A stretch of DNA of 60,602 nt, filler included, from Hausera hauseri (lineage: Eukaryota): the NCBI GenBank assembly GCA_046269625.1. It is 10 parts of 10 records of this genome, joined end to end, with 100 filler letters (N's around TTAATTAATTAA, not from the genome) between each part and the next. Parts side by side here need not be neighbours in the genome. Positions count along the whole stretch, not along the records: positions 38,437 to 46,893 come from JBJURY010636552.1; 9 more parts are not named here. One strand, given 5' to 3'. Shown one piece after another: positions 33,909-58,890 of the stretch. Made by a program: the position numbers and the translations under genes. A model generated the notes under the pieces. The model made no database searches. It was given only the letters and a program-made list of their open reading frames with translations, and was not told where the DNA came from. How positions within the stretch are numbered: the stretch's first letter is position 1; each line of letters starts with the position of its first letter.

Positions 33909-35730
33909 TGGTTAATCAATCTATTAACAATAATGATGCTAGTAAAACAAATGCGAGCAGTCACTATATATGATTGTGACAAATTCAAGCTGGGCCAGAA
34001 ATATTCCTTAATGGACTTAGAAACATGCGAAGATGCGAGACCCCATAAGTTAGAAACAACAGAAAAAAGGTATATATTATATCAACAACGAGAATTAATC
34101 GCAATGGACGCGACAGAATGCATGATATGGAGATCTCGCAGTGTTTTTCATTGCGGCGCTATGCACGGGCATTCTTCAATTATTAAACCAACCACACCAT
34201 TAATCCCAATGAATGTGGATAGACAACATTATTTAGGAGCCCGGCTAACCTGTAAAATGGTTTGGGAGGGCATGGCGTTAGAAGCCCAAGAAGGGAAAAT
34301 CATTAGGGCTTACAAAGTGGTAGTCGGAAAACTAAATATGCACACCGGTTATTGTGTCGGAGGAGAGTATTACACTGGAAAGGGAAAGGAAGAAGGAATA
34401 ATTGTCGTGGATTTTTACGAAACTGAATTAAGATCCTTAAAGGCAATGTTTTATAGTGTCACCACACTATTTACTGAAAATCAAAAATGTCGCATACAAG
34501 ATGGCGCTTGTACGTTCCGAAGTTCAGTTGTGGTATGGAATACACCTTCTAAAAGAGATTGCAATTTCACCAAAATCAAAGAGTTAAAATTTAACGAGAC
34601 GACCAGAAAACGTTATACAAATCAAATGCACGCTAATACCAGGTCCAGAGAAGGCGTAGTAGAACAACAGATACCGACGATATTGATATCGGACGCGCAT
34701 GGGTTAAAGTTTATTAGGAAGGACATGATAATGCGTTGCAATGTAGTTATGTATGCCACAAACTACGAAGCATTTTTCGTAGCGGAGACTGAAATTAACA
34801 TGAAAACGTATGATTTGAAAACGCAAGACATAAGGATAGAGAATTATCTCAAAAATCGATACGATTATTTCTATTACAAAGGACAAACCGGAATAGCAGA
34901 ACTGTATCACAAAATGATAACAAATTACTGCAGATTAGATACTGAAGTCATGATAACCAAATTGGCTTTAATTTGCGCCAATCCAGAATTGGCATTACCA
35001 ATTTTACCAATGAAAGAAGTTGTTTTCGGACGAGTTACTGGAGAAGTTCTCCTAACTTACGAATGCGAAAAAAGAGACGTACCGATCAATGTAGAAGAGA
35101 AATGATGTATGCAGGAATTACCAGTCATCTATAAGAACGTGCCCATACTAGCGATGCCACTCAGTAGAGTATTATTAGCAAACTCAACTGAACCAACGAT
35201 ACTGAAGGAATGCAAAACGAGCCCAGGTAAGCCTATGTTTCGGCGTAGCAGTACGGACTGGATAAGCATACCTAATGGAGGCACCACCGCAGCCCCTAGC
35301 AAGTTAACTGGAACGAATCTAATCAAAGGACTATCGGAAGATAAATTCGAGGATACAGCTAACAAAGGGATTTATAGGCCAAAGGACATAGAAGCCTTTA
35401 GGCAATTCTTAGTCTCTCCACGACAACGAACTTGTTAACTGAATCGGGCCATGTCAATGGTCATGGACGATACCCGCTTTCACTCGAAATGAGAATCGTT
35501 GCTGGGCGTTAACCACTATCAAATGGTAACATCAGAAGTATTGTATAAAATGTGGGGAAGATTTTTGATTTTTGGACAAGCCGCATCTGGATTTTTAGCT
35601 ATTTACTTCTTAATCCAACTATTTAATGCAGTAATTCAGGCTATAATAAACGGATATGACATATTCACATTGACAGGATTCTCTTGCAAAATTTTGACCG
35701 CGATCATCACAACCTTTGGAAAGATGCTAA
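33909..35730 (+). CDS. env: Env-like chuvirus (Jingchuvirales)-type glycoprotein: internal signal peptide, ectodomain, TM region; point stops
   Basis: WLINLLTIMMLVKQMRA|VTIYDC, YSLMDLETC, ECMIWRSRSVFHCGAMHGHSSI, GRVTGEVLLTYEC, CMQELPVIY...PLSRVL and WGRFLIFGQAASGFLAIYFL follow the chuvirus G motif order. Confidence 0.85.
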
Positions 35731-36381
35731 AAGCATACGAGGAAAATCGATGGAAGAATGACGTAGAACGTCACATTGGGCATTATAATCGCTAACGACA
35801 AGGAAAGTCCTCGATTCTTAATAAACGAAAGAATAAAAAGACAATAATGCGGAAAGACGATTCGGACGATGACAAGCCTAAGAGAGGAGAAGTGACTTCT
35901 AGAATGAGGATGCACAAGATGTACTCAGTAATTAACGCACCGTTGCCCATTATGCCGCCAGCAGCACCAATATATGAAGACTGTGACCACAAATCAATCG
36001 CATCGTGTAGGTCAGAAATCTATCAAAAGCCTATCAATTATGAGGATCCTTATGAGAAGACAAAACAATATGGAATACTTTGAAAAATGAATGTTATCAA
36101 CCAAGGACCAACTGAAAACGACCATGGAATGTTATACTCAAAAAGAATACTGCGTCACATAGAATCGAAATCAACAATCTGGGAAAATCCAAAAATGTGT
36201 CCTATCTCGGGTTCACTACCCCAGGAACCACTCAATGACAACCGCGTTACTGAAATAACAAACAACGACTTGTATCCGAATGGAGAAATAAGACAATTAA
36301 GGAAAGATATCATCTCATCGTCAGAAATAACGATAAATGGACATAGAGTCTCTACAGTAAAACGGTAAAGATAGTGTCAAA

Positions 36382-38336
36382 TTGCTACCTTTTGCTAAAA
36401 TACACATCGAAGATTGGGAATTGTATGCATTAATCGACACCGGATCAGAAAAATCATTTATAAAATATGAATCTATACCAACCACGTTGCGAGACCAGTT
36501 ATGTCCACCCGCATCATCAGACCCAGGTAGCGTAGGAGCATTTGGACAAGTATCGAAGCCGAAATTTAAATGGACTCCTACCTTTTATATGATGGGTCAA
36601 GCACTTCAACACGAATTTGCAATAATGGATCAGTTAACAGACGATGTAGTACTAGGGTGCGATATATTGAAACAGATACCAGGTATGGCAATCGATGTGC
36701 ACAATGGAAAATTAATTGAACTCGAACCGATAAAAGGGGCAAAACTAATAAAAGAAAGGAAATCGGGCGAAGTATGGATTCCAGTAGATGAAGACATTCC
36801 GCCTAAGACGGAAATGATAATTTTCGCACAAATTCGACAAGATGAAGATCTGCCAGTATATTTCTAGCCTCAAGAGAATATCGATCCAAACCTCATGTTT
36901 AGTAACATTTTGTGTAGAGTAATGACGGGAAGAATACCTATCAGATTAGTAAACAATGCACCGATTCCACTAAGATTGCACGCTAATACTACTTTGGGTC
37001 ACACTTGCAGAGTATCGGCAGTGACAATAGAGGAGAAACCATACAAGTGTGCCGAATTTCCACCTTATGTTGAAACCAAATTCTCTCCCGAAGCGTATTG
37101 CAAATTTTACAAATTATTGTGTAAATTCTGCTCGATAATAGCGAAAAACAAAGAAGACATAGGTAGAGCAAAGGCTCTAAGGTTAACCATTCCATTGAGG
37201 AAGAAACCTGGCTCAAATGACGAAATCGATCTAGAAGAACAGAAAATGCTTAAATAGTATCCGCCTCCTCACTCATTGAGACCAGAAATAACTAAAGAAG
37301 TAGAGCGGACGTTGAAGGCCGACATAATTCGACCAAGTTATCGATCATGGTACTCAACCATACTGATGGTTAAAAGAAAGGAACCACAAAACATCGGTTT
37401 TGTATAAATTATGGCGCGTTAAACACGCTGATGATGAAAGACTCGTTTCCACTACCATCAGTAAAGGAGACATTAGATAGGCTATCAGGAGCAAAATCGT
37501 TCACCACTCTCGACTTACAATCGGGATACTGGCAAGTGGAAATCGAAGAAGAGAATCGTTATAAGGCAGCATTCAAAACACACAATAACGTATATGAATT
37601 TAATGTTATGCCTTTCGGAATCACCACAGGACCAGCCATTTTACTAGAATGATGAATAAGATGCTCATGGGACTTGGTCATGCATTCGCGTACTTAGACG
37701 ACGTGATGATAGCATCAAAAACAGAAGAAGAACACTTAAAGGATATTGAAAATACACTCATGAGACTGGAACAAGCAGGGTTGAAGTTAAACCCAAAGAA
37801 ATGTAAATGGGCAATGAACGCCGTATCGTACCTTGGACACATAGTAGGAGAAGGAGGATCAAAACCGGACAAATCTCTGCTAAATAAAATATCCGATTGT
37901 ATGGAACCACAGAATCAAAAAGAGTTAAGACATTGGTTAGGCCTATGTGGATATTACGCCACTTACGTACCAGATAATTCAAAAATTAACGCACCACTAT
38001 ATCACTTACTCAAAAAAGGAATTAGGTGGAGATGGACAGAAGTGGAACAAAAAAGCATTCGACGAAATGAAGAAAATTTTGAAAAGCGAACCAGTTTTAA
38101 GATACCCAGATTTTAACCTACCATTCATCATTAAAATATATGCAAGTAAAGAAGGTATAGGGTATGAATTAGCTCAGAAACGCGAAGACGAAGAACTAGA
38201 ACATCCAATAGCCTATGAGGGACGCTATTTAAAGAAGGCAGAAAAGAATTATTCAGTTACCGAATTAGAAACGCTAGCCGTTGAGGAAGCACTACGACAC
38301 TTTAATGTCTATGTTTACGGACAGAAGATTATAATA
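36382..38336 (+). pseudogene. pol: pol (aspartic protease, RT, RNase H) of copy A
   Basis: DTGS, DSFPLP, TLDLQSGYWQV, MPFG, YLDD, RH motifs. Frameshifted. Confidence 0.95.
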
Positions 38337-39172
38337 NNNNNNNNNNNNNNNNNNNNNNNNNNNNNNNNNNNNNNNNNNNNTTAATTAATTAANNNNNNNN
38401 NNNNNNNNNNNNNNNNNNNNNNNNNNNNNNNNNNNNCGATACTGTGTTTTGTGCCCATTTACATTTCTTTGGATTTAGTTTCAACCCTGCTTGTTTTAGT
38501 CGCATGAGTGTATTCTCAATGTCCTTTAAGTGTTCTTTTTGTTTTTGATGCTGTCATTACATCGTTCAAATACACGAAAACATGCTCAAGTCCCACGAGC
38601 ATCTTATTCATCATTCTAGTAAAAATAGCTGGTCCTGTGGTGATGCCAAAAGGCATAACATTAAATTCGTATACGCCATTGTGTGTTTTAAACGCTGCCT
38701 TATATTGATATTCTTCTTCGATTTCCACTTGTCAGTATCCCGATTGTAAGTCGAGAATGGTAAACCATTTCGCTCCTGATAGTCTGTCTAAAGCTTCCTT
38801 TACTGACGGTAGGGGAAACGAGTCTTTCATCATCAACGTGTTTAATGCCCGATAATCTATACAAAATCGATGTTTTGTAGTTCCTTTCTTTTTAACCATA
38901 AGTATAGGTGAATACAATAATCTGTAGCTTGGTCGAATTATATCGGCCTTTAACATTCGCTCTATCTCTTTAGTTATTTCTAGTCTCAATGAATGGGGAA
39001 GTGGGTACCATTTAGGCATTTTCTGTTCTTCTAGATCGATTTTGTCATTCGAGCTGGGTTTCTTCCTTAATGGGATTCTTAATTTCAGGGCTTTTGTTCT
39101 GCTTATGTCATCCTCATTTTGTGCGATTATTGAACAGTATTTGCATAGTAATTTGTAGAACTTGCAATACGC

Positions 39173-41575
39173 CTAAGGAGAGAATTTGGTTTTAACGTGA
39201 GGTGGGAATTCAGCGCATGTATATGGCTTTTCCTCTATTGTTACTGCCGATACTCTGCAAGTGTGACCTAAAGTAGTGTTAGCGCGTAATCTTACGGGGA
39301 TTGGTGCGTTGTTCGCTAATCTGATAGGTATTCGTCTCGTCACTACTTTACGTAGAATATTGCTAAACATAAGGTTTGGATCGATATTCTCTTGAGGCTC
39401 GAAGTATACTCGCAGATCTTCGTCCTGACGAACCTGTGCGAAAATTACCATTTCGGTTCTGGGCGAAATATCTTCATCTGCCGGAATCCATACTTTGCCC
39501 GATTTCCTTTCCTTTGTTACTTTTGTTCCTTTTGTCGGTTCGAGCTCAATTAATTTTCCGTTATGCACATCGATTGCCATGCCCGGTATTTGTTTCAATA
39601 TATCACAACCTAGTACTGCATCGTCTGTTAACTGGTCCATTATTGCGAATTCATGTTGAAGTGCTTGGCCCATCATATAAACGGTAGGAGTCCATTTAAA
39701 TTTTGGCTTCGATATTTGCCCAAATGCTCCTATGCTACCCGGATCTGATGAAAATGCTGGGCATAGTTGTTCCCGTAGTGTGGTTGGTATCGAATCGTGT
39801 TTTATAAACGATTTTTCTGATCCTGTGCCGATTAAGGCATATACTTCCCAGTCTTCAATGTATATTTTAGCCAACGGTCTGCCTTTTACTACTGTTCCAA
39901 AGCAATTCGACGCTGTCTTTGATTGTTTTGTGGTAGAGACTCTGTGTCCATTTATTGTTATCTCTGGCGACGAAATGATATCTTGCCTAAATTGTCTTAA
40001 TTCTTCGTTTAGATATAAATCGTTATTTGTCATTTCAGTCATATGGCTGTCGATGAGTGGTTCTTGGGATAGTGGACCGGAGGTCGAACACAGTTTTGGG
40101 TTTTCCCAGATCGTTGATTTTGATTCTATGTTTCGAGGTATCCTTTTTGAGTATAATATCCCGTGGTCGTCTTTTGTTAGCCCTTGGTTATTAATATTTA
40201 TTTTCCGTAATACACCATGTTGTTTTGTTCTTTCATAAGGATCTTCATAATCAATAGGCTTACGGTAGATGTCGGACTTATATAACATGACTGATCTCCG
40301 GTCGCAGTCTTCGTATATTGGTGAGGTTGGTGGCATGATAGGCAATGGCGCGTTAATCACGGAGTACATCTTGCGCATTTTCATCCTGGAACTTGCTTCT
40401 CCTCCATTAGGCTCGTAATAATCCGAATCATCCTTTTGTGTTGTTGTTTTCTTGTTTTCACGCCTATACAAAATTGAGGGTCTCCCTCGTCGTTTGCGAT
40501 TATAGTACCCGACGTGGCGTTCTACGTCATTTTTCCATCGATTTTCTTCGTAGGCCTTAAGTATTTTTCCAAAGGGTGTGATAATTGCAGTCAAAATTTT
40601 GCAGGAAAATCCTGTTAATGTGAATATTTCATATCCGTTGATAATGGCTTAGATTACTGCCTTAATTAGCTAAACTAAAAAGTAGATGGCTAGGAATCCA
40701 GATGCAGCTTGTCCGAAAATTAGAAACCTTCCCCAAATCATATGCGCTATTTCTGAAGTTACTCTTTGATAGTGATTGGCACCAAGTAATGATTCCAATT
40801 TTGCTTGAAAGCGGGTGTCATCTATTACCAATGACATGGCCCGATTCAGTTCATAAGTACTCTGTCGCGGAAATGCTAAGAATTGCCTAAAGACTTGTAT
40901 GTCCTTTGGTCTATAAATTCCTTTATTGGCTATGTCTTCGAACTTCTCTTCTGATAATTCTTTAATTATATTTGTTCCGGTTAGTTTATTATGGGCTGCA
41001 GCAGCGCCTCCATTAGGTAAGTTTATCCAGTCGGTTCCACTACGTCGGAACATGGGTTCACCTAGGCTCGTTTTGCATTCTTTCAGTATTTTTGGTTCAA
41101 TCGAGTTTGCCATTATTACCCTGGTGAGTGGCATTGCTAGTCTCGACATATTTTCATAGATGACTGGTAATTGTTGCATGCATCTTTTTTCTTCCGCGTT
41201 GATTGGCACGTTCCTTTTTTCACATTCGTAATTTAATAGGACTTCTCCAGTAACTCGTCCAAAGACACCTTCGTTCATTGGTATAATTGGTGATGCCAAT
41301 TTTGGGTTGGCATAGATTAAGGCCAGCTTGGTTCTCATGACTTCAGTATTTAATCTGCAGTCATTCATTCATGAAATAGTCATCTGGATTTTTGAGGTAA
41401 TTCTCGATCCGTATATCTTGCGTTTTCAAATCATACTTTTTTATGTTAATTTCGGTTTCTGCTACGAAATATGCTTCGTGCTTGGTGGCATACATAGCTA
41501 CATCACAGCGTGTTAACATATCCTTTCTAATAAACTTTAATCCGCGTGCATCCGATATCAATAGTATCGTATCGG
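39173..41575 (-). pseudogene. Glycoprotein C-terminal half - TM - tail - protease
   Basis: The 473-aa ORF runs without a stop from TAIITPFGKILK (end of TM region) to ALIGTGSEKSFI (protease). Confidence 0.9.
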
Positions 41576-44061
41576 CTATTGTGGGATCAAGTAACATTTG
41601 CACGTTGAATTTAGTTTTATGAGTATAAGTAGGTGACTCATAAATTTGTATTGGAGTTCTTTGACATTGCTCGTTAAACCTTGGATGTATTCATCCCACT
41701 CGGCATCATTATCCGCGTCAGGTAACTCGTAGTTCATTAGTGCTGCGTGTTCAACCTGGACTCTTTCGCGTAGTTCTCTCATTTATGGTTGCAATGTTTT
41801 CATTATGGATATCCTAAATCCATCTCCGTTCCCACAAGCTTGTTGTATAAATTTTATTAATCGGCACATTTCTTCTGGTTGTATCAAGGCTTTCTCTTGG
41901 TAGTTAATTACTTCTGCGATTCTGTCCCTTTGTCATCTTTGTATAAATTCCATTTTGTCGTTAATTTCAGATTCTGTAAGGGAATACTTGTTCTTGTAGA
42001 CTTTTGCTTCTCTCAGTAATTCGTTTAGCTCGCGTTATATTTTCTCGGAGCGTAACTGGGTTTCTTTTACCAGACTTATTCGATTTGTTAGTCGTTTGGC
42101 TACTACTTCGTCAATTTCTGCCATTTCTGTTAATAGTATGATTAATTTATGCGTTTGATTTAATACTTCAGCGTCCGGATCTATTGAGTCCATTAGCCTG
42201 CCTATGAACTTGGCCTCATCGCCTGTCAATTGAAGACCCTTTCTAATTTTTGTTAGTTCGGTGTTGCAATGTAGGACGAAGTCTGGTGTCCATTCTGCTG
42301 GATTCTGTAAGTATTGTAGTGTTTGCGCTATAGCGATCCGGTGATCGTTACATAGTTCTAATATTTCTATTTCTTGTGCTGAGATTTCCTTCAATGGTTT
42401 CTGCATTAGGCTCTGTATCCCTTCCCAATGGATGTTCGCTAAACTTCGCTGAAGATCACTTAGCTTGTTTCTTTTTCTATCATATCATATATCTTTGTTA
42501 GTGTTGTTTGATATTGATCCCTGCTCATAAATTCAAGTTCTCGGAATGATTCGAATTTCATTCGCAATTTTGCTTCATCTTCCATCGTACCCATATCTAG
42601 TAACATTTCCTCCAATTGGTCTTTCATTATAGGCTCAGCCGTAGCGAATTCTCTTAGTCCTTCATTTATTATCCCTGCTATGGAAGGTAACAAGTCTATC
42701 CACTTCTTTAGTTGTTTGGATATTGCCGGTTTGGTATAGACTATTTCGTTTAGTGTCTCAAGAGCTTATTTTAGTTCGTGACATGGCCTTCGTACAAATT
42801 CTATAATGTGTTTCACGTAGTTGAATTCTTCTTTATATTCCTCTAGTTTGAGTAGACAAGCGTGTATTATTCTCTGTGCTTCTGCTCTTTCAGGATGAAT
42901 TACACCGATTTTAAAATTATTAATTTTCATTCGTATTTCGTTTTCTCTTTCAATCCGAATTTCTAAATTTGGGTATTTTCGAGGGCTATCCTTTATCAGG
43001 CTGCACATTGCTATTAGAGGGGGAATATCAATTGGGTCTATACCCAATATCTTTAGGTCGGCTTTAGTCAGTTCATATACTGGCTTGCTATGCAGATAAG
43101 AAGTTATCACTTCTTCGATCTCATATATCAATCTTTCTAAATTACGCCTTACGCGTTTCAATTTTGGGTCAATTTTTAGTGCGTTTAATGATCCTTGTGC
43201 TTGATAAACTTGCTCGAGAAACGGCTTGTTTCTATTCCACCATATTTTCGTAAAGTTGACTCCACTCTTTGTCCGCAGTTCTAATTTATTTTGCCAATTT
43301 TCTATCCAGTCTTGAGGCGTTTCTTGCAGTTCGTAAGGTGTGTTTTCTTCCTTTTTCTGAGAACCGGGTTTAAGCTTTTATATAGCTTTTCTATAAATTG
43401 TTGTTCTTTTTCAGGGATATGCAACTGTTTGCTCATCTTCTGGAGTTTTGTTAAGCTGTCCTGTAGCCTTTCGGGATCATTCAGTGCGTCTGTTATTTTG
43501 GTTAGTTCGCTAGCATTTTTCCAATATTTTATAATTTTCCTAAATTTAATAGATTTTTCCTCTACTGATTCCTCTTCACTAGGTGGTAATGGACATATTT
43601 TGTTAATTTCATCGATATTCGAAATATTTGTTGTTTCCGGAAAGTCTTGGGTTATTACAGGGGTATTTAACTTCGTTTTATTTCTTAAAGTGATGGTAAA
43701 GTCTTCCTAAGTGAAGGGCTTCTACCTTTATTCTTAGTTATCTTGAGTACTAATGGCCCAATGAATTTACTCTCAACCTCGTCTGTTGTTTTATCCTTAT
43801 TTTGAGACACGACTTCGGTATCTGCGTCCAAGTCTACACTTAAAGACGTAGTCGGCTTTTCTTCTTCCGCTGCTCGATTTAGGTTTCTCTTCCTGGCCAT
43901 GTTAGTATTCTTAGGTTCTATAGCTTTTTCGTACTCCGTTTTCGGCTCTCTTAACCCATGATAAACTTCCATTTGCTGCAGCTTTTCTTTGTATTCCTTC
44001 CTGGCCTTAATTATTGTGGATTATTAGATTCGCCGATATTTTTTACATACCTTTGTAAGTC

Positions 44062-45350
44062 CTACATCTCGATAATCGTAGTCATATCACCTCGTTTTCC
44101 ATAAATTCCTTCCAAATTATCTTTTATCGTGCTAGTTTTACTAGTCTGTGAAAATGATACACTTCGTGGATTAGGGCATGATCTAGCTATATGTCCTTCC
44201 TTACCACATAAGTAACAAATAAGGTTTCCATCTTGGCCGATCCTTTGTCGTCCGTCTTCATTCACTGGTGATTGGGATCTACCTATTGTTTTGCTTTGAG
44301 CTTGCTTGTCGATACCGTTATTTCTATTTTCGAAACTCCAATTATCTGTATATCGGTTCTTATTGCTTCGGTCATTATTTTGGTTTCTATCCGAAGTATA
44401 GCCTGTTTTGTTATAAGTATTGTATGTGTTTCGATTATCACTAAAGTTCCTATTGTCATATCTCGTGCTGCGATTAGAGGCATTTTGAGCTCTATTCTCA
44501 TAGTCTCGGTCCTTATTATTATCGTTGAATCTTTTATTGTTTCGGTTCCTATCCCGATTATCGCGATCATTATTTCGGTCTTATCTATTGCTCTGCCTAG
44601 CGTATCTATCTAGTGCCATTTCTAAGTTCTGAGCTAATTGTAATGACGTCTCAAAATTGTCTGGTCGAGCTAAAATTAGTTGCTTAACTAAATCTGTGGA
44701 CCATATACCGTTTATTAAATGAGTTGTCATCATGACATCTAAATCTGGCGGACTCGCCTTTTCTGTCGCTTTGCGTTCTGCGTCTGTCTTTGCCTTCGCA
44801 GCATTAGCTATCCTTAGCGTACTCACGTAACTATTATCAAGTTTCTTTAGTGCGAATGCGAATTGAGTAACCGACTCGCCTTTTATTGCGTTCTATTCTG
44901 AAAGACCATAAGCTTTTGTTCTGGCGTAACTGTCGGCAATAGTTTACGATTTAGGGCTCCTACTACACAGGATAATGATTTCTTCTCATCATTAGTGAGT
45001 TCACTATAGGCGTCTGCGTTTAGATTTTTCAAGTATAAAGACAATCGTTTAATCATAACTTCGGGCGCAAGATTAGCACCTTCTGCAATCAACTTGTAGG
45101 TTCGTAAAATGTCATTTAGCCAGTCCGGGTCACCATTATATGCCGGTAAGTTCAAGGAATCGAACGTACATATATCGAGTTTTTGAGCTACGGCTGGGTT
45201 TTCTGTTAGTTTAGTGTCGGATAAACAGTGATTGTCTATTATCTTATCTTTAGTATAAAGTTTATTTCGTGTCTCTCTTCGATTAAATTTCTGTTGGCCG
45301 TTTACTAATAAGTTTTGATTTGAGTTGAACCTATCAACGTTGGCTCTCAA
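44062..45350 (-). pseudogene. gag: gag: capsid-like region, R/D/N-rich linker, CCHC zinc knuckle
   Basis: LPAYNGDP...LSLYLK...FQNRTQ..GESVTQFA; CYLCGKEGHIARSC at 44176-44217. Confidence 0.9.
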
Positions 45351-45500
45351 ATTAGTTTTTACTTAATTCCCTCTATCGACTTATGATCCCAATTTTAAAT
45401 TCTCGGCTTTTACTATATCAATTACTTGATGTAAATGACGCTATTCGCCGGTATGTCGTTAATTAGCTTCTCAACAGTAAAGTCTAGCGAGGTACAAACT

Positions 45501-45518
45501 GTCCTGCTAGGGTCGCCA
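45501..45518 (-). promoter_or_regulatory. Primer-binding site (tRNA-Arg type)
   Basis: TGGCGACCCTAGCAGGAC, 2 nt after the LTR end ...TATAACA. Confidence 0.85.
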
Positions 45519-45520
45519 AA

Positions 45521-45813
45521 TGTTATAGTTAGGGTGGCCCTTTTCGTCTCCCACTATAACAATATTAAACTCACGTTAAACCTTGTCGTATGCAGATTAG
45601 GACTATTCGTTCTCGAATAGTCGATTTGTACCTTAGAATTTTAGAAACTTTTATCGAAGTAACGGAAATTGCTTGTACTGCTTGTAAAAAAAATTACGTG
45701 ATGTAATTTACAATCTCTAGTCTTACTTATATAGTTTAAGTAAAGATTTTTACCTTAGGGTAGTACAAATCGTCTTTAAGAGACGATGGAAATCTATATG
45801 AGAATTTATAACA
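45521..45813 (-). repeat. 293-bp 5' LTR of copy B
   Basis: Perfect 7-bp inverted termini TGTTATA...TATAACA; TATATAA at ~45730; followed by the PBS. Confidence 0.75.
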
Positions 45814-46270
45814 ACAAATAATATTAATCTTTATTGAATACACGATCACGTACGGAAATAAATAGAAGTCAATAGTCTTTAGAGCTGTATGGCAATAGCA
45901 ATTTGAACTGGTTATAATGATATCAACGAAGTCTAGCTTGAACGACTCTAAGTCGGTTCACTTGAATGATACTAAAACAATGCCTCTCTATTCTCTGATC
46001 AAGCATGTTTATATAGTAGTGTTTCTCGTCGTATGAAAAATTTTCTAAATTTATCTTGGCATTTTCTGATTTCACATCGAATTATTTACATTTAAATTAT
46101 TTATCTATTATATACATGATTTCAACTTGCGCACAGCAATATTTGTTATATTTCTAAAATTAGTTAAATGACAAATTTATGTCTGGAATTCGATTTGTAA
46201 TAATTCTGAATATATTCCAATGACGAAGTATTGTGGTCCACTTGTTACATATGTTAAATTTCTCCTCCCT
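45814..46270 (-). mobile_element. PPT and interrupted 3' LTR of a RING-bearing element
   Basis: AGGGAGGAGAAA (46270-46259), then TTTAACATATGTAAC; TATATAAA at ~46010; AATAAA at ~45833. Confidence 0.65.
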
Positions 46271-46893
46271 GAGCGGCATCCTTGAAGGAGCCTATTGCCT
46301 CAGAAGAAGTGGCGTCTAAATGTCTGGGTTGTCTCAATTGATTCATTCTTTCTCGTAGGTCAGTATGAGAGTTTGATCTACCTTGGGTGGTTGATGGACT
46401 CATCTCCAGATTATAACTATGGTAAGGCTGGATTCGGACGATTCGTGTATAATTTTCGTTGGAGTAGTATTTTAATTCAGTAGCCTCTGCCCGACATAAT
46501 GGGCATGTCGTCTTCCCATTGTCGAGTGTCCATTTTTCCAGACAATCCCGGCAATATTTATGGCTGCAATTTTTGTTGTCTAAAACTACATAGCCTTGTC
46601 CTAGGCTTGCGTTGCATACAGGGCATTCACTATCTTCCTTATCTCAGTCGTTCCTATCCAAATCCACTTGGATTATTAACTCGATGGATTCAAATACAAG
46701 ACCATCTTCGTCTTTATATAGGTACCCGTGTATTACCTTTTGTTTGCGGTTAATGGCGCTCTTTCATGGGTCGCAATTTACTTGGATCAAGGTCCAATCC
46801 GCTAGAAAGTCTTTATCCAGGTATGGAATTGTCCCCTCTATTTTATTTTTTTGGTATTGTTTCTTTAGCAATATTCGAATTTGTTTGTCCATG
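46254..46893 (-). pseudogene. Retroelement 3' reading frame with a C3HC4 RING finger (not in the ORF track)
   Basis: 46625-46494 encodes CPVCNASLGQGYVVLDNKNCSHKYCRDCLEKWTLDNGKTTCPLC. The frame ends QGGEI* across the PPT. Two TGA stops lie upstream. Confidence 0.85.
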
Positions 46894-46993: not shown

Positions 46994-49900
46994 AGCAAAG
47001 CCCAGCTAGTGAATATTGCCGATTACATAGCAAACCAAGATGATTTTTTGTTCAATATAACTTACAAAACAATTGAAGAAATATACTCTGAGACCATTCA
47101 GAACTTTTGCAGAGTGAATTTTGAAACTTTGAGGAACCGTTTGGCTATCTATGCATCTAGTCCAGAAATTACCACAATAACCCTTCCCTTTGGCGAAGGA
47201 ATTCAAGGCAGATTACTAAGAGAAGTATGAAATACATACAAATGTAAACGATTACACTTACCCCTGATTGCTGGTACTCACTGCTACTCTGAGATACCTT
47301 TTAAGTATAATGAAGAAATCCGATATGTTCAACCGATTACCAGAGTACTTCTGGCATCACATACAATACCCAACGAAATCCAAAATTGTTCAGCACTGAA
47401 TAAACCATTTATCAAGTACCATAATCAGGATTTCTGGGTTAGATTACCCGACCGTGAAAGAGTTAAAGAAAGGCCGAAGAAGTTGACAATGGCGAATTTG
47501 AAACATGAAATTGAGACCAATATGTTCACTGACGTATCCAAATCCGCATTATACACTAAGAAAGAAATTGACTCATTTGTGAAATTTCTGGCCTATGCCC
47601 AATAAAGAGAGCAAATAATAAATCGCGGAATACACCCAGTAATCGACGACACTGTCGGAGAAAGAAAATGGGACACCTGATGCCTATGCTAAAATCGTTT
47701 CCAACTTATGGTATAAAATGTGGGGCGGATTCCTAAGATTCGGCCAAGTAGCCTCTGGGTTTCTGGCCATATAGGTCATTATACAGACTTTAAAAATCTG
47801 TATCAATTATGTATTAAACGCCTACAAAATCTATAACTTTACAGGACTATCTCTAAGCATAGTAGGTACTCTATTTTCCCCACTTGGTGAATTCATTAAA
47901 GCTTACCATGAGAAACAATGGCGAGGTAAACTAGAAAAACATGTCGATTATAAATCGAATAAGCAACTTCCAAGGGACATCCCGTCAAGTTTCGATGACA
48001 ACAATGCTCCTGGATATTATCCTACCACAAGGATTATAAAGGATACGAAAGGGAAACTAAGGTTTTTGAAATGAAAGGATAAAAATAGACCTAAATCACT
48101 TGCTGCGCCATATGAGAATAGAACAATGCTTATTTCTAGATTATAAATATTAACAGACTTGAGTGATCCGTATAGAAAAATGGAGCAGTATATAAAACTA
48201 CGTAATTTACCAAAATACTCTCAGGAAGAAATACGTCAATCCATTATTAAATGAAACATGGAAAACAACCGTGTAACATTACCAACATCACCTAAGTTAG
48301 GTATACTGCCAACTATACCTTATCACAAAACAACCCCATTAATGAAAGATCAAGTAGATAGAGAACCCTATTTAACGACCTCAGAATCCGTTGGTAAGCA
48401 AAACACAGACCTGGCTGAACTCAGAGGCAGCGAAAGGAATGGAAAACAATACTCAATCCTTGGAAAGCTTAGCGGTTATATTATCAAGCGGCACTACCCG
48501 AAATTGTTCAGCTAGTTACAGCTTGATAGAACCACATATAGATAATCATAACGATGTATTAACATTTCTCGAGCTGTTAAGGGATAATCGACCTCACACC
48601 ACAGTTTACTTTGATAGTTTTGACCTGAATGCTATGGTTGACACTGGAGCTAACGTTCCATTAATAGCAAAACATGCAATTCCAGAAGAATTACAATCTC
48701 AAATAAAATTGGCTACTAAAGACTCACCTGGTACTACTTCGGCTTTTCAGCAATGCAGTAAACCTTATGGATACTGGAAAAGTGTACCATGGATTTGCGG
48801 ACATAGTCAAGATAACTTTTGATGTAATGCTTACCTTGGATTTACGATGCATTTTGGGTATGAATGTGTTGCGAAAATTGGAAGGAGTACACATAAACTT
48901 ACAATCAGGATCAATTTGTTCAAATAATGAAGATAAACCCCCTAGCTGCAATAAAACAGACATTTGGATAGGACACGTTGAGAAAATATCAACCAATTCT
49001 CGAATGGTTATACATGCTAGAATAATTTTTCCAGACAACAGTGTCATTGAGTTTGCGCCGAAAACTCTTCGAAATGGGCTTATATTACCACACTATTGCG
49101 TTAATGTAATTGGAAGGACTATTACAGTAGATGTTTTAAACCCAACCCCAAACTATGTCACGTTGTTCACTAAAACAAAAATTGGATAGACCCTTGAGAC
49201 AACTCGTCGTGAGAATTACGATAAGAGAGTCGCGACTGTCTCTACCACAGAACAAGAAAATGCCGAAGATATATTAAACGTCGTTCTCGCAAAAGCGAAG
49301 AAAAATCTATCATATGAATATCTAGAAAGCTTCTCAGATCTTATTTTTGAGTATCTTGACATTTTTGCAAAGAATGAAACAGGTATTGGACGAACTGATT
49401 TAGTCAAATTCAAATTATCATTTATGATTGACCCGCTAACAGGAAAAGAAATAGATTTATTACGACAACCTATACCAAAATGGTACCCTCCTCCAAAAGT
49501 ACTCCAAAAGGAAGTTGAGAAACAAATTCAAACTATGCTCGATAAAGGTATTATAGAACCAAGTCAATCTCCATGGCCCTCTCCCATAGTTATGGCCAAG
49601 AAGGCTAATACAACTAAACAACGTTTGTGTGTAAATTACGTTACCTTAAATAAGCACCTGATGAATCATACTTATCCGATTCCTCGAATTCGAGATATAT
49701 AGACGAACTTAAGGATTGCAAATATTTTACCACTTTAGATTTACAAAATGGACTTTGGCAAATTCCTGTGGCTGAAGACGACCGATGGAAAACTGCATTC
49801 AAGACACACAACGGAGTCTATCAATTCACTCGTATGCCATTCGGCTTAAAAACATCACCCACATTCTTTCAAGAATTTATTCGCCTAGTACTAAAAGAAG

Positions 49901-51794
49901 TACGAGGTTTATCATACATTGACGACGTTTTCATCGCGTCCAAGACATGGTCTGCGCACTTAGCTGAATTAAAAGAAGTATTCGATCGAATTAGACTTGC
50001 GAAATTAAAGCTAAACCCGAAAAATGTAAACGGTGCAAGAAAGAAGTTAGATATCTTGGATTTGTTGTTTCCAACCAAGGAATTTCGACTAGGCCTGATT
50101 TAATATCCAAAATATTGGAATACCCCCCATCAACCAATGTCCACGAAATGAAAGCTTGGTTAAGTTTGGGAGGACTTTATGCTACATTTATACCTGACTT
50201 TGCGGAAATTAATCAGCCTCAATATAAACTCTTAAGAAGGGATCGCAAATGGGAATGGACAGAAGAGAATCAAAATGCATTTGACGAGATCAAGAAACGA
50301 ATGGTATCAGCACCTATATTGAGATACCCAGATTTTTCGTTACCATTAATTCTGATAACCGATGCTAGCATAAAAGCTATTAGTTATATTAGCCCAGCAA
50401 AATCCAGAAGAAACAACTGAGCACGTAATTGCCTACGGAGGATGTAATTTAAATAATGCAGAACGAAAATACTCAACCACTGAATTAGAATTACTAGCTA
50501 TTCGCGATGGATTGCTACATTACGAGTATTACGTTTACGGTCATAAAATCATAATATTTACTGATCATAAGGCACTCTTATCTTTACGCTCAGACAATAG
50601 ACATATCAAGTCGACTCCAAAGATGGAAGTTGGAACTTTTGAATTATGATCTTGAATATCCATATCGTCCTGGCAAAGAAAACATAGACGCCGACGCGCT
50701 TTCGAGAATGCCACACTATAAGATAGTAGCCGCAGTTTATAAACCATTAGATAATGAGAATGACAAACAACTGAATGAGAACAACGCAAAATCCAAGTAC
50801 GAAATATCGAGACCTTACAAAACCAGGATCACTTTCTTGTTCAAATCAGACAATTAATCAATGGGCAATTAGTTGACTCGGCATCAAACCACATTCAAAA
50901 ATTTTATGAAAAGAACAAAAAAAATCTTGAAATTGAAAATTGCATTTTACGACTAAGAGTCGGAGAAAGAAAATTGATCCTTGTATCCACACCGTCCATC
51001 AAGGCTGTCATGCTATAAGAACATGATTCGCATTTAGCTGGACATCCGTCCTTGAATAAAACTTTGAAGCGAATAACTGCAAAATACTATTGGCCTCAAA
51101 TGAATAAGCATATTGAAACATGGGTACGTTCGTGTAAAATATGCGCAACTCGAAAAGATAAAGGATCTCGTGTAAAACCATTTTTAGGAAGCTTGCCAGA
51201 AGCACGGAGACCAATGGAAGTGTGTTCAATAGATATCTCCGGACCCTTCCCAGCTTCAGACTTAGGATACAAATACATTCTGTCCCTGGTTGACTATTAT
51301 TCTCGCTATGTTATACTAGTGCCATTAAAGAATATGACGAGTAGCACAGTTGCTGAAGCCTTTTTCTACGAAATTATTGCTGTACTGGGCACCCCGAAAC
51401 AGTTGTTAACTTACCGTGCACCATATTTCATTAGCGAATTCTTTGAAAAATTGTCAAAAATACTTCAATGCAAACATTTGTTAACCACATCATACCATCC
51501 ACAGTGCAATGGTATGGTTGAGATAATAAATCGTACTATTTAAGGTATTCTTTCTACAAAGGTAGCAAATGATCAAAATGATTGGCACAACCATCTGAAA
51601 ACCACAGCCTTTGCAATTAATACTACGCCTACCAAAGGAACCAATCATTCACCTTTTGAGTTAATATTTGGCCGATTGCCGCTATTACCATTAGATACGG
51701 AATTACTACCATCATCCTTGTTAACTAGTGATCACATGGATGATCAATATCAGATTTTGTTAAAACGACTCGAATACTTTCAACATGAAGCAAA
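46994..51794 (+). mobile_element. Ty3/Gypsy element of a related lineage: glycoprotein C-half - tail - PR - RT - RH - IN
   Basis: NFCRVNFETLRNRLA...GEGIQGRLL; CYSEIPFKY...YVQPITRVLL; MWGGFLRFGQVASGFLA; VDTGA at 48640; YIDD; ITDAS; HLAGH...CKIC; SYHPQCNGMVE. Confidence 0.95.
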
Positions 51795-52048
51795 NNNNNN
51801 NNNNNNNNNNNNNNNNNNNNNNNNNNNNNNNNNNNNNNTTAATTAATTAANNNNNNNNNNNNNNNNNNNNNNNNNNNNNNNNNNNNNNNNNNNNAACATG
51901 CTCATTTTTAACCATACAGTTGGATAAGCCTGAACGGACCCACCAGCCCCATCAAGATACATTCCCGTTGTCCCAGAGGTTCCCTCACAACTCTGCAGTC
52001 AAGTCCTTTTTGGATATATATTTTCAATTTTAGGCAAATATCTAAGAG

Positions 52049-52483
52049 TAGAATTGCCAGTTTTTATCAGATTTAGGAGGGCTGTATTACTAGTTACTGT
52101 TGTATTACTGGTTACGGTCGGGCTTAGGACAACGGATTTCATCTTTTCCTCCAATCATTAATGTAATTTAGAATTTGTGCTGTCTCTTCAAGTTGTGGAA
52201 CATGGGCCGGTAAGCTTCTCAATTTCTCTATTAGTAATCGAATTTCAGAAAGTGTCAATTTATCAGCATGTTCTTCGTGCTTCTTTGTAACAGCACTAAA
52301 TGTAATAACGGTGACAATTTTGCATTTGGACTCTGATTTTATTGGTTCTGTTATTTCGTGGTTTTCAAATTTAACAGTTTGTTGATGTAGAAGCATCTTG
52401 AGTTCCTCCAAATTCGGTTTTTCCTCAATACTCACAGCCTTCACATCCTCCGCCTGCAGAATATCGAGATTTTCAATAAATAA
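52049..52483 (-). pseudogene. KDM5: KDM5 PLU-1-region fragment, duplicate of 59887-60322
   Basis: KPNLEELKMLL...KLTLSEIRLLIEKLRSLPAHVPQL...WRK. Close nucleotide copy of the second module. Confidence 0.7.
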
Positions 52484-53249
52484 ATGGATATAATGAGTAT
52501 GTAATATTTCCAGGAGAAAAGATACACTCCTCAGACCATAATGATTACCCCTTTCATAGCTGTTTTCTATTCCGGAAATAATCAATTTGCATGTGTAGAC
52601 TAAGGCATTGAATTCATCTTCCGAGCTTTGACTTTTCTCCGGATTGATTTTTGACAAAACGAGACTACAATATTCTTCATTTTCAAAAAGACTTCAAAAG
52701 AAATTTATGAATAAAATTCGGTGTTAAGTTTCAATAAAAACATCGTACTGCGTTTGTTCTGATGCAGAATTATCTTCTTTTCTTGGCGGCGGAATCTGAA
52801 ACTATACAATGCCCAACATCGTCTTCTAAGTTTGTTTTCAGTTTATCTACAATATTTGCATTTGGGATTTGTAAATATGTTGTAGGATGGTAAACCAATT
52901 GGGGATCAACTCCATAATTTACACACTTCTAATCTTAAGTTAGACTTCTTCGTTGATGATGAGCAGGATAACAGCATTGTTTCAAATGCCACTTCTGACA
53001 CCAGTGTAGATTTTCGTGTATCATAAGAATCAGATCTATTAATTAAATCCAACAATGTTTATTTTCTTAAGTACAAAGATTTTCAGTCACAAAAAAATTA
53101 ATCACTCAATACTTACATATACACATGCAGATGCATAGATAATGTCATGATATTGTAACTAATGACTTTGACCATTCATGCACTGATAATTGTCGTTTCA
53201 TTCCAAAATCGTCATTAGCATCATCATCTGCCAAAACGACTTTCTGTAT

Positions 53250-53521
53250 AGCTCTGACGTCTTTTAGAAAATCATCATCCATTTCATTGTAAAGGGGTAC
53301 TTCCATTGACTCGATATTAATACACCTTTCCTGCCGTCCTTTCTGGTATCTGTAAACCTGGAATCTCCAGCTTTCACACTAAAGATTATTCCCGCTTTAC
53401 TCACCAAAAAGTCCGTCAATGCTGATTTTCCGTTATCTACATGGGCTATGACACGCATGTTCCTTATATTCAATTTCTTTTCCATAAGAGACCTTATTTG
53501 GTCTATGGTAAAATCGACTAT
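53250..53521 (-). pseudogene. EEF2: Elongation factor 2 N-terminal fragment
   Basis: [44 protein letters not shown]...RFTDTRKD, frameshift, [10 protein letters not shown]-loop degenerate (HGKST to NGKSA). Confidence 0.9.
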
Positions 53522-53622
53522 CTTCACATGCAAATAACATCAACAAAGTATAGTCACATTGTGGGAAAGGTCCTCCCATTGACACGCAAATCCTCCAGTG
53601 CGATCCCACTCTAAGCATTACA

Positions 53623-56600
53623 TCACCCCCCCCCCCGCCGTGGCAGAAAATACACGATATGAAGGCGAAGGAAAACGGTGAAGATATAATGGATGAAAAC
53701 GATTAGTCGCAAAAGAAACAATATTCGGTGTCTATTCAGTTATAGTACGGGTGAGGCGTTGTGCGCCATCAAAGAACTTTTCTCGGCTGTACGTATTGAA
53801 TGTCACTCTGTGTACCTTTCTCGATGGATTTATGCTGGGCTGTTAAGAGATATTTTGCGATGGAGATGATAGTGAAGATGAGTCAAGCAAGAAAGGAGGT
53901 GAAGAAGGTAATGAGCATGATGGCTGAGAGTGACGTGAGACGGATGGAGGAAATAATGATGATTGATTGTAATCGAACAGTGATTACTGCAACGGCGCAA
54001 AATAGTTTAGAAAATTGGTAGGAGTGCGAGCTGAGTTTGCGTTGGAGGTGGAATTGGCGTCAGGAATGTCATCAATGAAGAAAGCCGGCTTCAAGTTAGA
54101 AATATGGATGTTCTAAAGCTTATCTTGCCATAAGATGGATGCTGTATTTAATGAAAAATTCAGCATTTTGTATGGACCAACATATTAAGGTTTAAAACCA
54201 GAAGGTGATTGATTCTTCAGCCACACAAACTTAGCGGAGTACAAATCCTTCGGAAGATAGGATTTGTTGTTGGTAAAAAGGCGACAGAATAAATCTGAGC
54301 TGACCTCGAAGAAATGAGATTGCGTTGCACGAATGTTCTCATCTGTGGGGTTGTCGTCGAGATCAGAAAGTCCAAACAGTGCCCAAATTTGAGTCCCAAA
54401 GAGTGCTTTGGCTGGAGCACAACCGGTAGTGGTCGAAAGTGTGTTGCACCACCCTAGTGGAACAAATGGTAGAATGGACGTTCAATTACGATAAGTGTCA
54501 GCCAAGAATTTTAGAGAAATTTTTATTGTACGATGGAACCTTTCAAGAAGTCCATTTGCCTGAGGATGATATGACGTAGTATGAAAATGGAATATTCCCA
54601 AGCGTTTGACATGTGATTTGAAAAATTCCGGCTCAAATTGTGGACCTTGATTCGTTATTATGTAACGTGGGGAACCGAAACGACTGATCCAGATTTTTAT
54701 AAATGCGTCGGCAACTGGATCAGTGTTCGTTGAACGAAGAGGAACTGCTTCAGGCCAGCAAGAAGCACGATCCATCATGGTAAATATATGTTGATATCCG
54801 TTGTCTGAAGGTAAAGAACCAACTAAATTAAGATGAACTGTATGGAAACGTGATGCACAGGGAAAATGGTACAGCGGCGGCTTGAGATGTTTCATGATTT
54901 TGTATTTTTGACAGGCTACGCATTCTTTAACCCAGCCCTGTACATATATACGCCTTGATGGCCGTACTACATGACGTTGATGCAGGAGAAAGGTTGCTTT
55001 CGAACCCGGATGATGAAGTGAGTACGTATGAAAGAAAGCTGGCTTTTGTAAAGATGGAGTTAGAATTATCTTTCTATTAACGGAATTCGACGTACCAAAA
55101 GCAATGCTATCAATGATTTCGAAGGATTTAAAAGAACTAAGGAAGTCAGCAGATGGTTGATTGGCCTTTAAAACTTCGGTTAAAAAAATTGGCCCAACAG
55201 TGATGGAGCCTACCGACCTCGATAGAAAGTCTTCCACCAAATTGTCTGTGCTTAAAATATATTCCAACATAAAGCTAAAAGTAGACAGATATGATATATG
55301 TTTCTCTTGCCTCCATGATGGCTGTTTAACGACATGATGTGCAGTAAAGGCTTGTGATCAGTATGAATGACAAATGGACTAGAGAAAAGTAAATGTTTGA
55401 AATGTTTTACTGCCAGAACTATGGCGAGTAACTCACGGTCAAATGTTGAATAACGGCTTTCGGGTTGTGTGAGCTTTCGGTAATAGAATTCTAGTGGTTC
55501 ATCGATGCCATGGTATATTTGATGTAATATCACACCGGTTGCTGTGGTCGAGGCATCGGTGGTAATTATAAGATTTGAGTTGGGCTTTGGATAGGCCATT
55601 AATTGTACGAATTTTAGGCCATTGTGTATGCGGTCAAACTTAACGACTAAATCAGTAGTCCAGTGAATCAACGGCCTCTTTTTTACCGGATCATAAATGT
55701 GCAAAAGGTGCCGTAAGCTCAGAGCAACGAGGTGCGTATTTGTGGATGAAGTGAAGTGTGCCTAAGAAACTTCTTATGTCCGTGGTAGTAGTTGGTAGAG
55801 TTATGTTTTTCAATTGTTGTAGTCGATCCGGTTGTGAAGAGTGGCCGTGAGGAGTGATGAAGTGACTTAGGAAATTAACAAGTTTTTAAAAGAAATGACA
55901 CTCGGAGAAGTTAACTTGCAAATTGTTGTGATGTAATCTGTGAAAGATAATACGAAGGTGTTCTTAATGTTGTTTGAGGGACATAGAGGCAACTAATGTA
56001 TCATCCATATATGGATGAGCGAGTCAAGGCCTGAGAGTACGGTATCAATATGCCGTTGGAAAGTTTGAGAAACACTACGTAAACCAAATGGCATAAAGAT
56101 GTATTCGTAGAGGCCAAATGAAGTAATAATAGCAGTTTTTAAAATGTCATCAGAGGCGACAGGAATTTGATGGTTGACTTTGTGCAGATCAGTGGTAGAA
56201 TATGTGTCGTTGAGGCTATAAAGAATATCTTTAATAAGTGGTAATGGATAGGCGTCGGTAATGATCAGGTTGCTTAATTGACAATAGTCGCCACATGGCC
56301 TATATGTACCATCTTTCTTTACCACTACATGAAGAGGAGAAGCCCACGGTGAATTCGATCCCCGAATGATGCCAGACCTTTCCAGTTCATTATATTCCTG
56401 TTCCACAGCTTTACGTCTGCATGGCGACAAGGATTTGACCTTTTGTTTGATCGACCTCTGATGCTCTGTTAATATGTGATGATTAGTTGTGGATGGAGGC
56501 TTGAAGTTGATGTTTCTTTTAACAATGCGAAAGCAAGACGTTGTGACGTATGATTTAATATCGAAGTCTAAAGGCAAAAATAAATGAGGCATGTCATTAG

Positions 56601-58612
56601 AGAGAACATCTCCAGTGATTGACAAAAAGCAAATGGTATCGCTACTGTCGACGCCTAATTTGGATTCTTGTTTTACAATGTATTTATGATTGTCGTTCAT
56701 AATTGAAGTGTTTCCGACTTTATCCGGAATTTTTTATAGATAACAAAGCGTTCAACAGGTTTATGGATGAGTGCAGTGGATTGCTCGCTAAGTTGTCTAC
56801 GAGACACATGTTTGGAATCGCAATTGAGTTCCTGCTTAAAAGACAGCTGTATTTGCAATCGACAAAAAGATCATGTGCAGCGAGAAAATCTGAGCCTATT
56901 ATGGGAGATTTAATGTTAGCCACGTGGAACGTCCAGACAAACTTATCTGGCAAGTTGGCAAATGTAAAAGTCAATTTTGTAGTTCCTGCAACATGCAACG
57001 GTTGACCACTTGCAGTGAAAAGCTGTGGACAGGAAATCATAGTCGATGTAGGAACGAAGGACAACAGAAGGAGTAAAAATGCAGCTCCTGAATCTATGAG
57101 AAAGTCGATATGTGAAGTACCATTGCATAACAGAGCGGATTTCAATAGAAAGACTGCAGAGGTGGTGCTGAAACGGCCAGAAGATTGAGCGATATTGCCT
57201 ACGCCAGAATGTGCCGTAACATCTGCTGCGTTATTAGTTTTTGAGATTTTTTGGTAGAAAGAGAAGGAATCGTGAGTATGAGGAGGAGAAGAAGATGGAG
57301 AAAAACTAGAATTTTTTTATAATGTTTACATCCTGGCACTCATGACCTAGCCTTGGATTGATACTTTGTGATAAATGCAGATAGGGTTGTCTACTGCATG
57401 ACGTTCGTCGTAAAATCGACAGCCTGAAACACATTTCCTTGTGTCTCTGCGGAATTTATTGTGATAAAAACACGTCATTCTACCGTCTCTAGATTTGGTC
57501 CGAGAAGAATGCCTGGAAAAACTACGATTGCGCGAAATACGGCTTTTGCTTCCTCGGGGCACGGATAAATCACTGAATATGGCTGTGATCGCGGAAATTG
57601 CTTGTTGTAGTGTGTTGAATTGCTTCGGCATCATATGCAGTTGTTGTGCAAATAAAGTGTTGTCTGTGTGTAGGTGTTTGAGCGGTTGCTGCATCTACTG
57701 GCTGTAAATTATTGGACTGCAAAATATGAAAATTTTTGTCTGCGAACAAGGCGAGTTTTTCAAGGGCAGTGCAGTCGTCTACTACAGTAAGCAGCTCTTG
57801 GACGGAAGTTGGCAAAGACGAAAGAAAATACCGACGAAGAAGATCGACAATGTTTATGGGAGTGACATTCAAGGAGCTCAATTGCGACATTGCAGTTTTA
57901 AGGAAATCCTATGGTTTTGATTTCCCATGGCGTGTTCATTAAGGCATTTCTGAATTATGCTGTCGATGGAAGGGTCGGTGATATGCAGAACTGATTCATA
58001 CAACATATCATATGGACTTGAAGAATTAAGTAATAGCAGCAATCTGTTTGCCCGCAAAAAGGAGTCTGTAACATGATTGACTTTAAGCCACTGCAAGTGG
58101 AACTGCAACCAGATACTACTGGAATTTATCCTGTCTAGAAAAAAATACGTGCAGGGGAGATTTGGAGATGTTGTTGGTGTGGTGTCGACAGGACGACGAC
58201 CAGATCTGGTCTTTATGGAGTTTTCCACATAAGAAGAATCGGGGTACGATCCACCCCGTAAGCGAAAATGGAGCATGATATAGGTGCATGGACGTTCGTG
58301 GCGTACGAAAGACAGGAGGAAGTCCGAAGGATGTACTATAAGTCCTTTATATGTGAAATAAAAATCATAAGTACTACGTGATGAGGACAAAGCGTCGTAT
58401 AAGACCTGTACTGTCTCGTTGAGTGGCGCTTGTAAGATTGTGATGTGTTGATTGTAACTAAAGACCAGAAAAGAAGATTGTAATGAGCTCATCCCAAAGG
58501 AACGATGAAATGCACGGGTGGTCTGGGCGGTTACCTTTTGGATTAAGAAGCGGTTCGAGATTACAGCTGGGATAGCGGTGGAAAATAATAATTGGGATAA
58601 AGAAATATACAA
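53623..58612 (-). mobile_element. Decayed Ty3/Gypsy element: Ubl-Gag, PR, RT, RH, IN, PPT; LTR pair not identified
   Basis: Gag FLSSLP..VQ..L...LA.FADK and CFYHNKF....KC..GC; FLIDSGA; SPWASPLHVV.K, YRPCGDY, YMDD; TTDAS, YSTFDRELLA; TTSYHPQANGLLERFHR; G11 PPT at 53626-53636 followed by TGTAA. Confidence 0.92.
58250..58492 (-). CDS. 81-aa ubiquitin-like domain ending in RLRGG, fused in frame to the Gag N-terminus
   Basis: From ATG 58492: FLVFSYNQHITILQAPLNETVQVLYDAL / FYFTYKGLIV / YIMLHFRLRGG match the ubiquitin pattern. Continues SYPDSS... into Gag without a stop. Confidence 0.8.
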
Positions 58613-58890
58613 AGATGTTAAGTTAAAAACCCTTTAAAATAAAAAATGGTTTGAGCCAGGAAGGGTCTGCACATGCGCAGAGAGTGGTGACACCTCTGGG
58701 CGCGAATCAATGAAAGAAATACCACCCACCTGTGTTTAGATACTTCTGATGGTTGAATGTTCGCCAGTCGATGGGTCAGGTTGCTGTTGACTCGTGGTAC
58801 GTCCATAGAATCATTGTAGTGGTCTGGTCCAGAAGGTTCGAAGTCCAACACATGACACTGAGCAGCGATTGGACAAACAGATACACATGT

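Follow-up and report, generated by a model that had tools for sequence, protein, structure and literature searches.

Does a RING finger encoded beside a candidate long terminal repeat (LTR) in Hausera hauseri belong to a retrotransposon, and what might it do for such an element? The window analyzed here is a stretch of 60,602 nucleotides from assembly GCA_046269625.1. It is made up of 11 contigs of about 3-9 kb (3.4-8.7 kb) with N linkers between them, and contigs across a linker are unrelated. The RING lies at the edge of contig 38437-46893, where the upstream sequence ends. The original prediction read it as an element-encoded E3 ligase at the extreme 3' end of an LTR element, possibly directed against host silencing. 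The host is an AT-rich animal, and a sugar-transporter fragment at 3493-4104 may be reminiscent of flatworm glucose transporters.

The RING finger and its reading frame

The RING is read from a minus-strand frame of 212 codons (46254-46892) that is open to the contig edge. Two in-frame TGA codons, at 46766-46764 and 46646-46644, both lie upstream of the RING, and this copy of the frame is decayed. The unbroken stop-to-stop frame that holds the RING spans 46643-46254 (-) and has 129 codons. The ligand spacing C-x2-C-x15-C-x-H-x2-C-x2-C-x12-C-x2-C occupies 46625-46494 (-) exactly as originally described, with the Trp four residues past the sixth ligand, and 79 residues lie between the last Cys and the frame end. 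The Pfam search proposed with that description returned zf-C3HC4 above its cut-off (E 3.7e-7, 30.3 bits against 21). The match to zf-RING_2, the best family, was stronger still (E 7.2e-10, 39.4 bits against 27.3), and zf-C3HC4_2 and zf-C3HC4_3 also exceeded their cut-offs. A generic RING pattern matched twice in the real window and in none of 200 triplet-shuffled windows. With eight ligands in RING spacing and a score above the curated cut-off, the domain is a RING-HC, and the RING feature is real.

RING E3 ligases that bind an E2 carry a hydrophobic residue in loop 1, a Trp in the helix, a Pro in loop 2 and a basic residue after the last Cys. The corresponding residues here are a Val that precedes the second Cys, the Trp at 46532, a Pro ahead of the loop of the last Cys pair and an Arg that follows the last Cys. 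The best PDB sequence matches are likewise the RINGs of E3 ligases, namely RNF4 (top), RING2 and TRIM5; the RNF4 match spans the RING only and is barely better than those of TRIM5 and RING2. Judged by these sequence features, intact copies of the frame plausibly encode an E3 ligase.

The absence of the RING from the ORF track, noted in the original prediction, has a simple cause. A start-codon ORF caller misses the domain because the first ATG/GTG/TTG of the 129-codon frame is at 46403, past the RING, and the ORF begins only there. Homologues of the whole RING frame were sought in a word-indexed search of proteins of 116-371 aa, where none of 60 candidates matched at E 1e-3. Single-sequence structure predictions of the region before env and of the RING gave pLDDT values of 42 and 47 and were too poor to use.

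A purine tract and an LTR-like segment adjoin the RING frame

The RING frame does cross a candidate polypurine tract (PPT), as had been proposed. The tract consists of 12 purines at 46259-46270 (-), is read in frame from 46270 to 46259, and is followed by the stop codon at 46256-46254. Next to it lies an LTR-like segment of ~730 nt (45521-46258, minus strand), which ends in CA, has 30% GC, lacks a long ORF and contains one AATAAA at 45835. Its 5' edge is ambiguous: TT stands directly after the tract, the closest TG lies another 9 nt away, and the segment may begin at 46258 or at this TG at 46249. The composition breaks at the tract: GC is 0.41 before it and 0.30 after it, and A-skew is 0.25 before and 0.06 after. 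Because the window holds a single copy of the segment, without a second repeat, the labels "LTR" and "PPT" are assigned from features of the boundaries. A hairpin considered at the 3' end of the segment was dropped, as it did not exceed shuffles (z 0.14).

Two nucleotides past the terminal CA, a candidate primer-binding site (PBS) that starts with TGG occupies 45501-45518 (-). Its geometry would fit a tRNA 3' end with discriminator G, which would be Ser-like. The loose CA..TGG pattern has 40 matches in the window, and the weight of this candidate lies in its place before gag. G-rich purine runs occupy ~1% of window positions. They occur within 45 nt of the frame end in 3 of 83 long frames, two of these three being the RING frames, under thresholds set post hoc.

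Gag, env and pol on the RING contig and in a sister copy

Read along the minus strand, contig 38437-46893 carries the RING frame, the tract, the LTR-like segment, the PBS, gag, env, protease and RT in this order. The gag region (44062-45362, minus strand) is broken over two frames and has one CCHC knuckle at ~44217-44170 (Pfam zf-CCHC, E 1.4e-6); blastx matched it to the N-termini of related polyproteins (best E 1e-13). A broken, unassigned coding region at 41576-43706 (-) separates gag from env and gave no Pfam match to BIR, MATH or Ank. The gB-type (class III) env at 40550-41563 (-) matches Monjiviricetes_fusion (Pfam, E 7.8e-24) and is a C-terminal half, the N-terminal half being missing relative to the sister copy described below. 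The protease and the N-terminal part of RT follow in the same frame at 38437-39883 (-), up to the contig end, which truncates them. A single frame of 941 codons with 4 stops (41368-38546, minus strand) runs through env, protease and RT. The suggestion that env stands before pol is thus borne out for the element that follows the LTR.

The sister copy, on contig 32126-38336, is ~80% identical to this element and has 1863 nt more, at the 3' end of the gag-env region and within env. It carries a ubiquitin-like domain before env at 33030-33170 (+), whose Pfam match (ubiquitin, E 4.5e-4) reaches 20.4 bits and is below the cut-off of 25.4 bits. A ubiquitin-like domain occurs at the same position in three related polyproteins (P0135, P0134 and P0011), and the segment is deleted from the RING-contig copy. 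PDB matches of the domain were not counted, being inflated by polyubiquitin repeats (single-copy E 0.19). The stretch 33006-33944 (+) of the sister copy reads as the ubiquitin-like domain and then a helical stretch, directly before env. The sister copy gave no match to a Bcl-2-like domain; at the place equivalent to its helical stretch, weak Bcl-2 matches were obtained in relatives. With respect to the Ty3/gypsy order gag, PR-RT-RH-IN, the RING contig holds gag-PR-RT and the sister copy holds RH; the RH-IN on contig 46994-51794 is that of a different family.

On balance, the RING is probably the 3'-most accessory gene of a Burro-like Ty3/gypsy LTR retrotransposon (Burro is described below). 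Such an element would comprise gag, a ubiquitin-like domain, a gB-type env and then PR-RT-RH-IN in frame, with the RING gene last. The contig would represent the element tail (RING frame and PPT), one LTR and then the head (PBS, gag, env and pol), an order that might stem from a collapsed short-read assembly or from a tandem arrangement sharing one LTR. From intact copies, a RING-HC ubiquitin ligase of 212 residues or more would be made, its most probable source being an ORF of its own or a subgenomic RNA rather than an extension of integrase.

Env-before-pol elements occur on 4 of the 11 contigs. Two further decayed families with this order lie at 4769-8937 (-) and 46994-51794 (+), and two short stretches of env in the former match that of P0011 at 64-78%. 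At 51895-60602 (-), a decayed gypsy element that lacks env is flanked by a duplicated 447-nt PLU-1-like segment, the copies of which (52038-52483 and 59877-60322) are 93% identical; fragments resembling TCP-1 and elongation factor 2, the latter labelled by eye, are nearby. At 26099-32025 (+), pieces of a decayed non-LTR retroelement were recognized by eye, among them a stretch resembling RNase H and tails of GAA repeats. The frame at 9549-16548 (+), which spans a linker, is long, intron-free and rich in Ser and Lys; it contains repeats of 53 residues (159 nt) and had no match in Pfam or NCBIfam. An island of 48% GC at 19880-20530, with repeated GGAGGAGTCAGGTG and ATGGCGG motifs, has the look of a promoter region. 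The NCBIfam profile scan gave nothing beyond the Pfam results, and neither the Rfam scan nor the tRNA scan of the window gave a match.

Related polyproteins and the question of an integrase fusion

A HMMER search with the sister-copy env returned 127 proteins, the best of which are env-pol polyproteins. The word-indexed search with the same env among longer proteins gave 0 of 4405, and we judge it insensitive here because HMMER found 127 relatives where it found none. In a second search, seeded by one env-pol relative, the best 120 of 481 matches include a group of gag-env-pol polyproteins of 2,700-4,050 aa. Among the matches listed, P0003, P0004, P0130-P0144 and P0147 have env-PR-RT-RH-IN in one frame, and some relatives carry ubiquitin-like, Bcl-2-like or ankyrin domains. 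P0011 has the order knuckle, ubiquitin-like, Bcl-2-like, env, the middle two matches being weak, and the weak Bcl-2 matches are those of P0005, P0011 and P0006. Identity of the related polyproteins is 27-33% in env and 40-47% in the RT segment, with similarity in gag and the pre-env region as well. The 8 best matches of the RING-contig RT segment fall within the gag-env-pol group, from which the set was seeded. An RT tree built by a quick method from 197 columns, with 34 of 101 usable database rows left out, places the window elements on long branches outside a well-supported 18-member clade of the related polyproteins.

Could the RING instead be the C-terminal domain of a giant gag-env-pol polyprotein, in frame with integrase, to be freed by the element protease or taken into the nucleus with integrase? 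The RING frame is coding-like up to the contig edge, and the relatives among the matches listed are single polyproteins of 2,600-4,050 aa with post-integrase tails of ~500-1,100 aa. Such tails occur at the C-termini of 19 relatives (P0003, P0004, P0013, P0130-P0144 and P0147). None of the 19, however, ends in a RING, and 16 end in a strongly hydrophobic, membrane-like segment; a RING pattern was found in none of the 245 related proteins, all counts being among the matches listed. The 83 codons upstream of the RING also match none of the relatives' tails (best E >0.05). It can be argued that these tails need not apply to our element, whose RT falls outside the relatives' clade. We consider this alternative unlikely. 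The fusion of RING and integrase raised in the original prediction thus found no support, and the contig ends before integrase could be read. No conservation of the RING across species was seen among the 60 frame candidates (116-371 aa) or among the 245 related proteins in the matches listed.

Three features of the relatives stand apart from this question. Among the matches listed, 10 of the 19 tailed relatives end in S/T-x-V/L/I, a PDZ-ligand-like ending, compared with 4 of 102 other long gypsy matches. Several tailed relatives carry extra protease copies. The env-pol polyprotein P0003 is labelled as belonging to a Flavobacteriaceae metagenome-assembled genome and most likely represents animal DNA binned in; of 21 pattern matches to the DNA around it in prokaryotic genome contigs, none was confirmed.

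Comparison with known elements

Burro/GYPSM1, a giant Ty3/gypsy element of planarians, has env in frame between gag and pol, a total size of >30 kb with an internal part of up to 25 kb, and a cargo of Ubi2/SUMO-like, BCL-2, BIR, MATH and ankyrin domains in which apoptosis and ubiquitination are prominent (PMC6431247). Burro1 is PIWI-silenced (PMC8532177), and its RING+BIR region is reported to protect stem cells from apoptosis (Lee et al. 2026, as cited in PMC13465017). GAG-ENV-POL elements of the gB type occur in nematodes, bryozoans and flatworms (PMC13524379). Rotifer LTR elements have varied 3' accessory ORFs, and RING is mentioned 0 times in the accessible text (PMC5408684).

With Burro, the H. 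hauseri element shares an env in frame between gag and pol, a CCHC gag and ubiquitination-related cargo, and the sister copy has a putative ubiquitin/SUMO-like domain before env, as a sub-cut-off match. Unlike in Burro, none of the ORFs scanned between gag and RT gave a BIR, MATH or ankyrin match, a Bcl-2-like domain is undetected, gag has one knuckle instead of two or three, and the LTR candidate is ~730 nt. Its RING scores best in zf-RING_2, is followed by ~80 residues and is set against the PPT. We therefore describe the element as Burro-like in layout and do not class it as Burro, the comparison being with the published description of Burro.

The RING is not clearly of the IAP type, because Pfam found no BIR in the 129-aa RING ORF or in any scanned ORF of the RING contig. 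IAP-type modules have their RING at the extreme C-terminus; the RING here is followed by 79 residues. The AIR1 profile commonly marks CCHC knuckles. We did not accept the label "AIR1 with RING Zn-finger" given to GYPSM1 in PMC6431247 as a true RING.

The element also shares Ty3/gypsy pol, gB-type env and the gag-env-pol order with the GAG-ENV-POL errantiviruses. It differs from these in its RING, a term found 0 times in either the main text or supplementary file 1 of their description, the examined parts of which describe no accessory ORF at the PPT (PMC13524379). It differs, too, from the related env-pol polyproteins among the matches listed, which lack a RING and end in a membrane segment. 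The C3HC4 ligand spacing and the E2-contact residues are shared with RNF4, RING2, TRIM5 and ICP0; the likeness to viral and cellular RING-HC E3 ligases is limited to ~50 residues, with nothing that points to orthology or shared substrates.

Env-before-pol order and RING cargo both have precedent. What appears new is a BIR-less RING-HC gene set against the PPT, seen twice in the window. In the literature surveyed, mostly as titles and abstract openings, we found no RING ORF described as standing alone beside the PPT in an LTR element.

Possible roles of the RING protein

If the RING is the accessory gene that we propose, its product would engage an E2 of the host and mark host proteins. By analogy with the RING+BIR region of Burro1, it may belong to a ubiquitin/cell-survival toolkit that keeps the host cell permissive. 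This role is the best-supported guess because a ubiquitin-like domain is present in the family and Bcl-2-like domains are present in relatives. The link to apoptosis is one of analogy, because a BIR was not found and a Bcl-2-like domain was undetected in the sister copy.

The RING protein might also be a SUMO-targeted ubiquitin ligase (STUbL) that acts against SUMO-dependent transposon silencing, as suggested by analogy with ICP0. A SIM-like hydrophobic core with an acidic run lies directly before the RING at 46629-46676 (-). In related polyproteins, which total 43,617 aa, the same pattern was counted 13 times, an expectation of ~0.009 for every 30 aa. The family carries a ubiquitin/SUMO-like domain, and RNF4 is the top PDB match. 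The pattern, however, was written after sight of the sequence, the second stop falls inside the acidic run, and a single motif is present where STUbLs usually have several. The RNF4 match is confined to the RING and barely exceeds those of TRIM5 and RING2. We regard this role as distinctly unlikely. The anti-silencing function proposed originally gained no direct support, the nearer precedent being the anti-apoptotic RING+BIR module of Burro1.

A second RING frame in the window

A second RING frame lies at 24775-25296 (-) on contig 21745-25998, with its RING at 25155-24991. It crosses a purine tract at 24822-24809 (-) that has TG directly after it, and GC drops there from 0.38 to 0.28. The frame is unrelated to the first, their 27% identity being confined to the RING region. 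At the edge of the same contig (25882-25998, minus strand) lies half of a third RING, and no gag or pol was found on this contig. The contig probably represents the 3' end of another LTR family.

This recurrence can be pushed further, to the idea that a free-standing RING ligase gene was put against the PPT independently in several env-carrying LTR families of this host that are unrelated to one another, the present one being SUMO-targeted and ICP0-like, unlike the IAP of Burro1. We hold that idea to be improbable enough to count as speculation. If true, the RING would be the retrotransposon counterpart of herpesviral ICP0, destroying SUMO-marked silencing factors.

Does the RING belong to the element?

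A host RING exon or processed pseudogene beside which an unrelated element had inserted, or a chimeric assembly, could mimic the arrangement described above. Animal genomes have hundreds of RING genes, the assembly is fragmented, the RING is single copy, and pol is absent upstream. The sequence itself reads otherwise. Codon use of the RING frame scores 0.05 bits per codon under the element model and -0.13 under the host model, which is weak, being built mostly from one repetitive gene; no other frame fits. The element-like codon use extends to the 82 codons that precede the second stop, and the frame is coding-like to the contig edge in spite of its two stops. Stop density is 2 in 212 codons, compared with 6 in 1522 in three element frames. 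Between the last stop and the RING, no T-rich splice acceptor was found (2-5 T per 20 nt). The 60 candidates of 116-371 aa included no host-like homologue, and the arrangement of RING and tract recurs on the second contig.

The claim that the RING marks the 3' end of an LTR element and is not a host exon is consequently upheld by the neighboring tract, LTR-like segment, PBS and gag, and by the GC/skew break, the element-like codon use and decay, and the missing acceptor. A host origin or a chimera is very unlikely, and the RING feature is most likely element-borne; that the LTR and PPT are what they seem, and that the RING is of the same family as the element next to it, are points we infer. 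A RING located within a long LTR and encoded by its U3, as sag and nef are in retroviruses, with the purine run not a PPT, would agree with the lack of a TG directly after the tract and with the several-kb LTRs that the sizes quoted above for Burro imply (>30 kb in total, ≤25 kb internal), but it is exceedingly improbable in view of the sharp composition break at the tract and of the second RING frame, which has the same kind of tract with TG directly after it.

Implications

The value of the finding is limited: the copy at hand is both decayed and truncated, and precedents exist for the gene order as well as for RING cargo. With a small RING domain in an unbroken ORF segment, E3 activity and partners are directly testable. 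To our knowledge, few animal retrotransposons carry regulators of host proteins. Burro1 is the reported case, affecting stem-cell survival. A non-IAP RING in a fixed 3' place, encountered twice in unrelated sequences of one 60-kb sample, suggests that ubiquitin-ligase accessory genes are a recurring feature of env-carrying elements of this kind.
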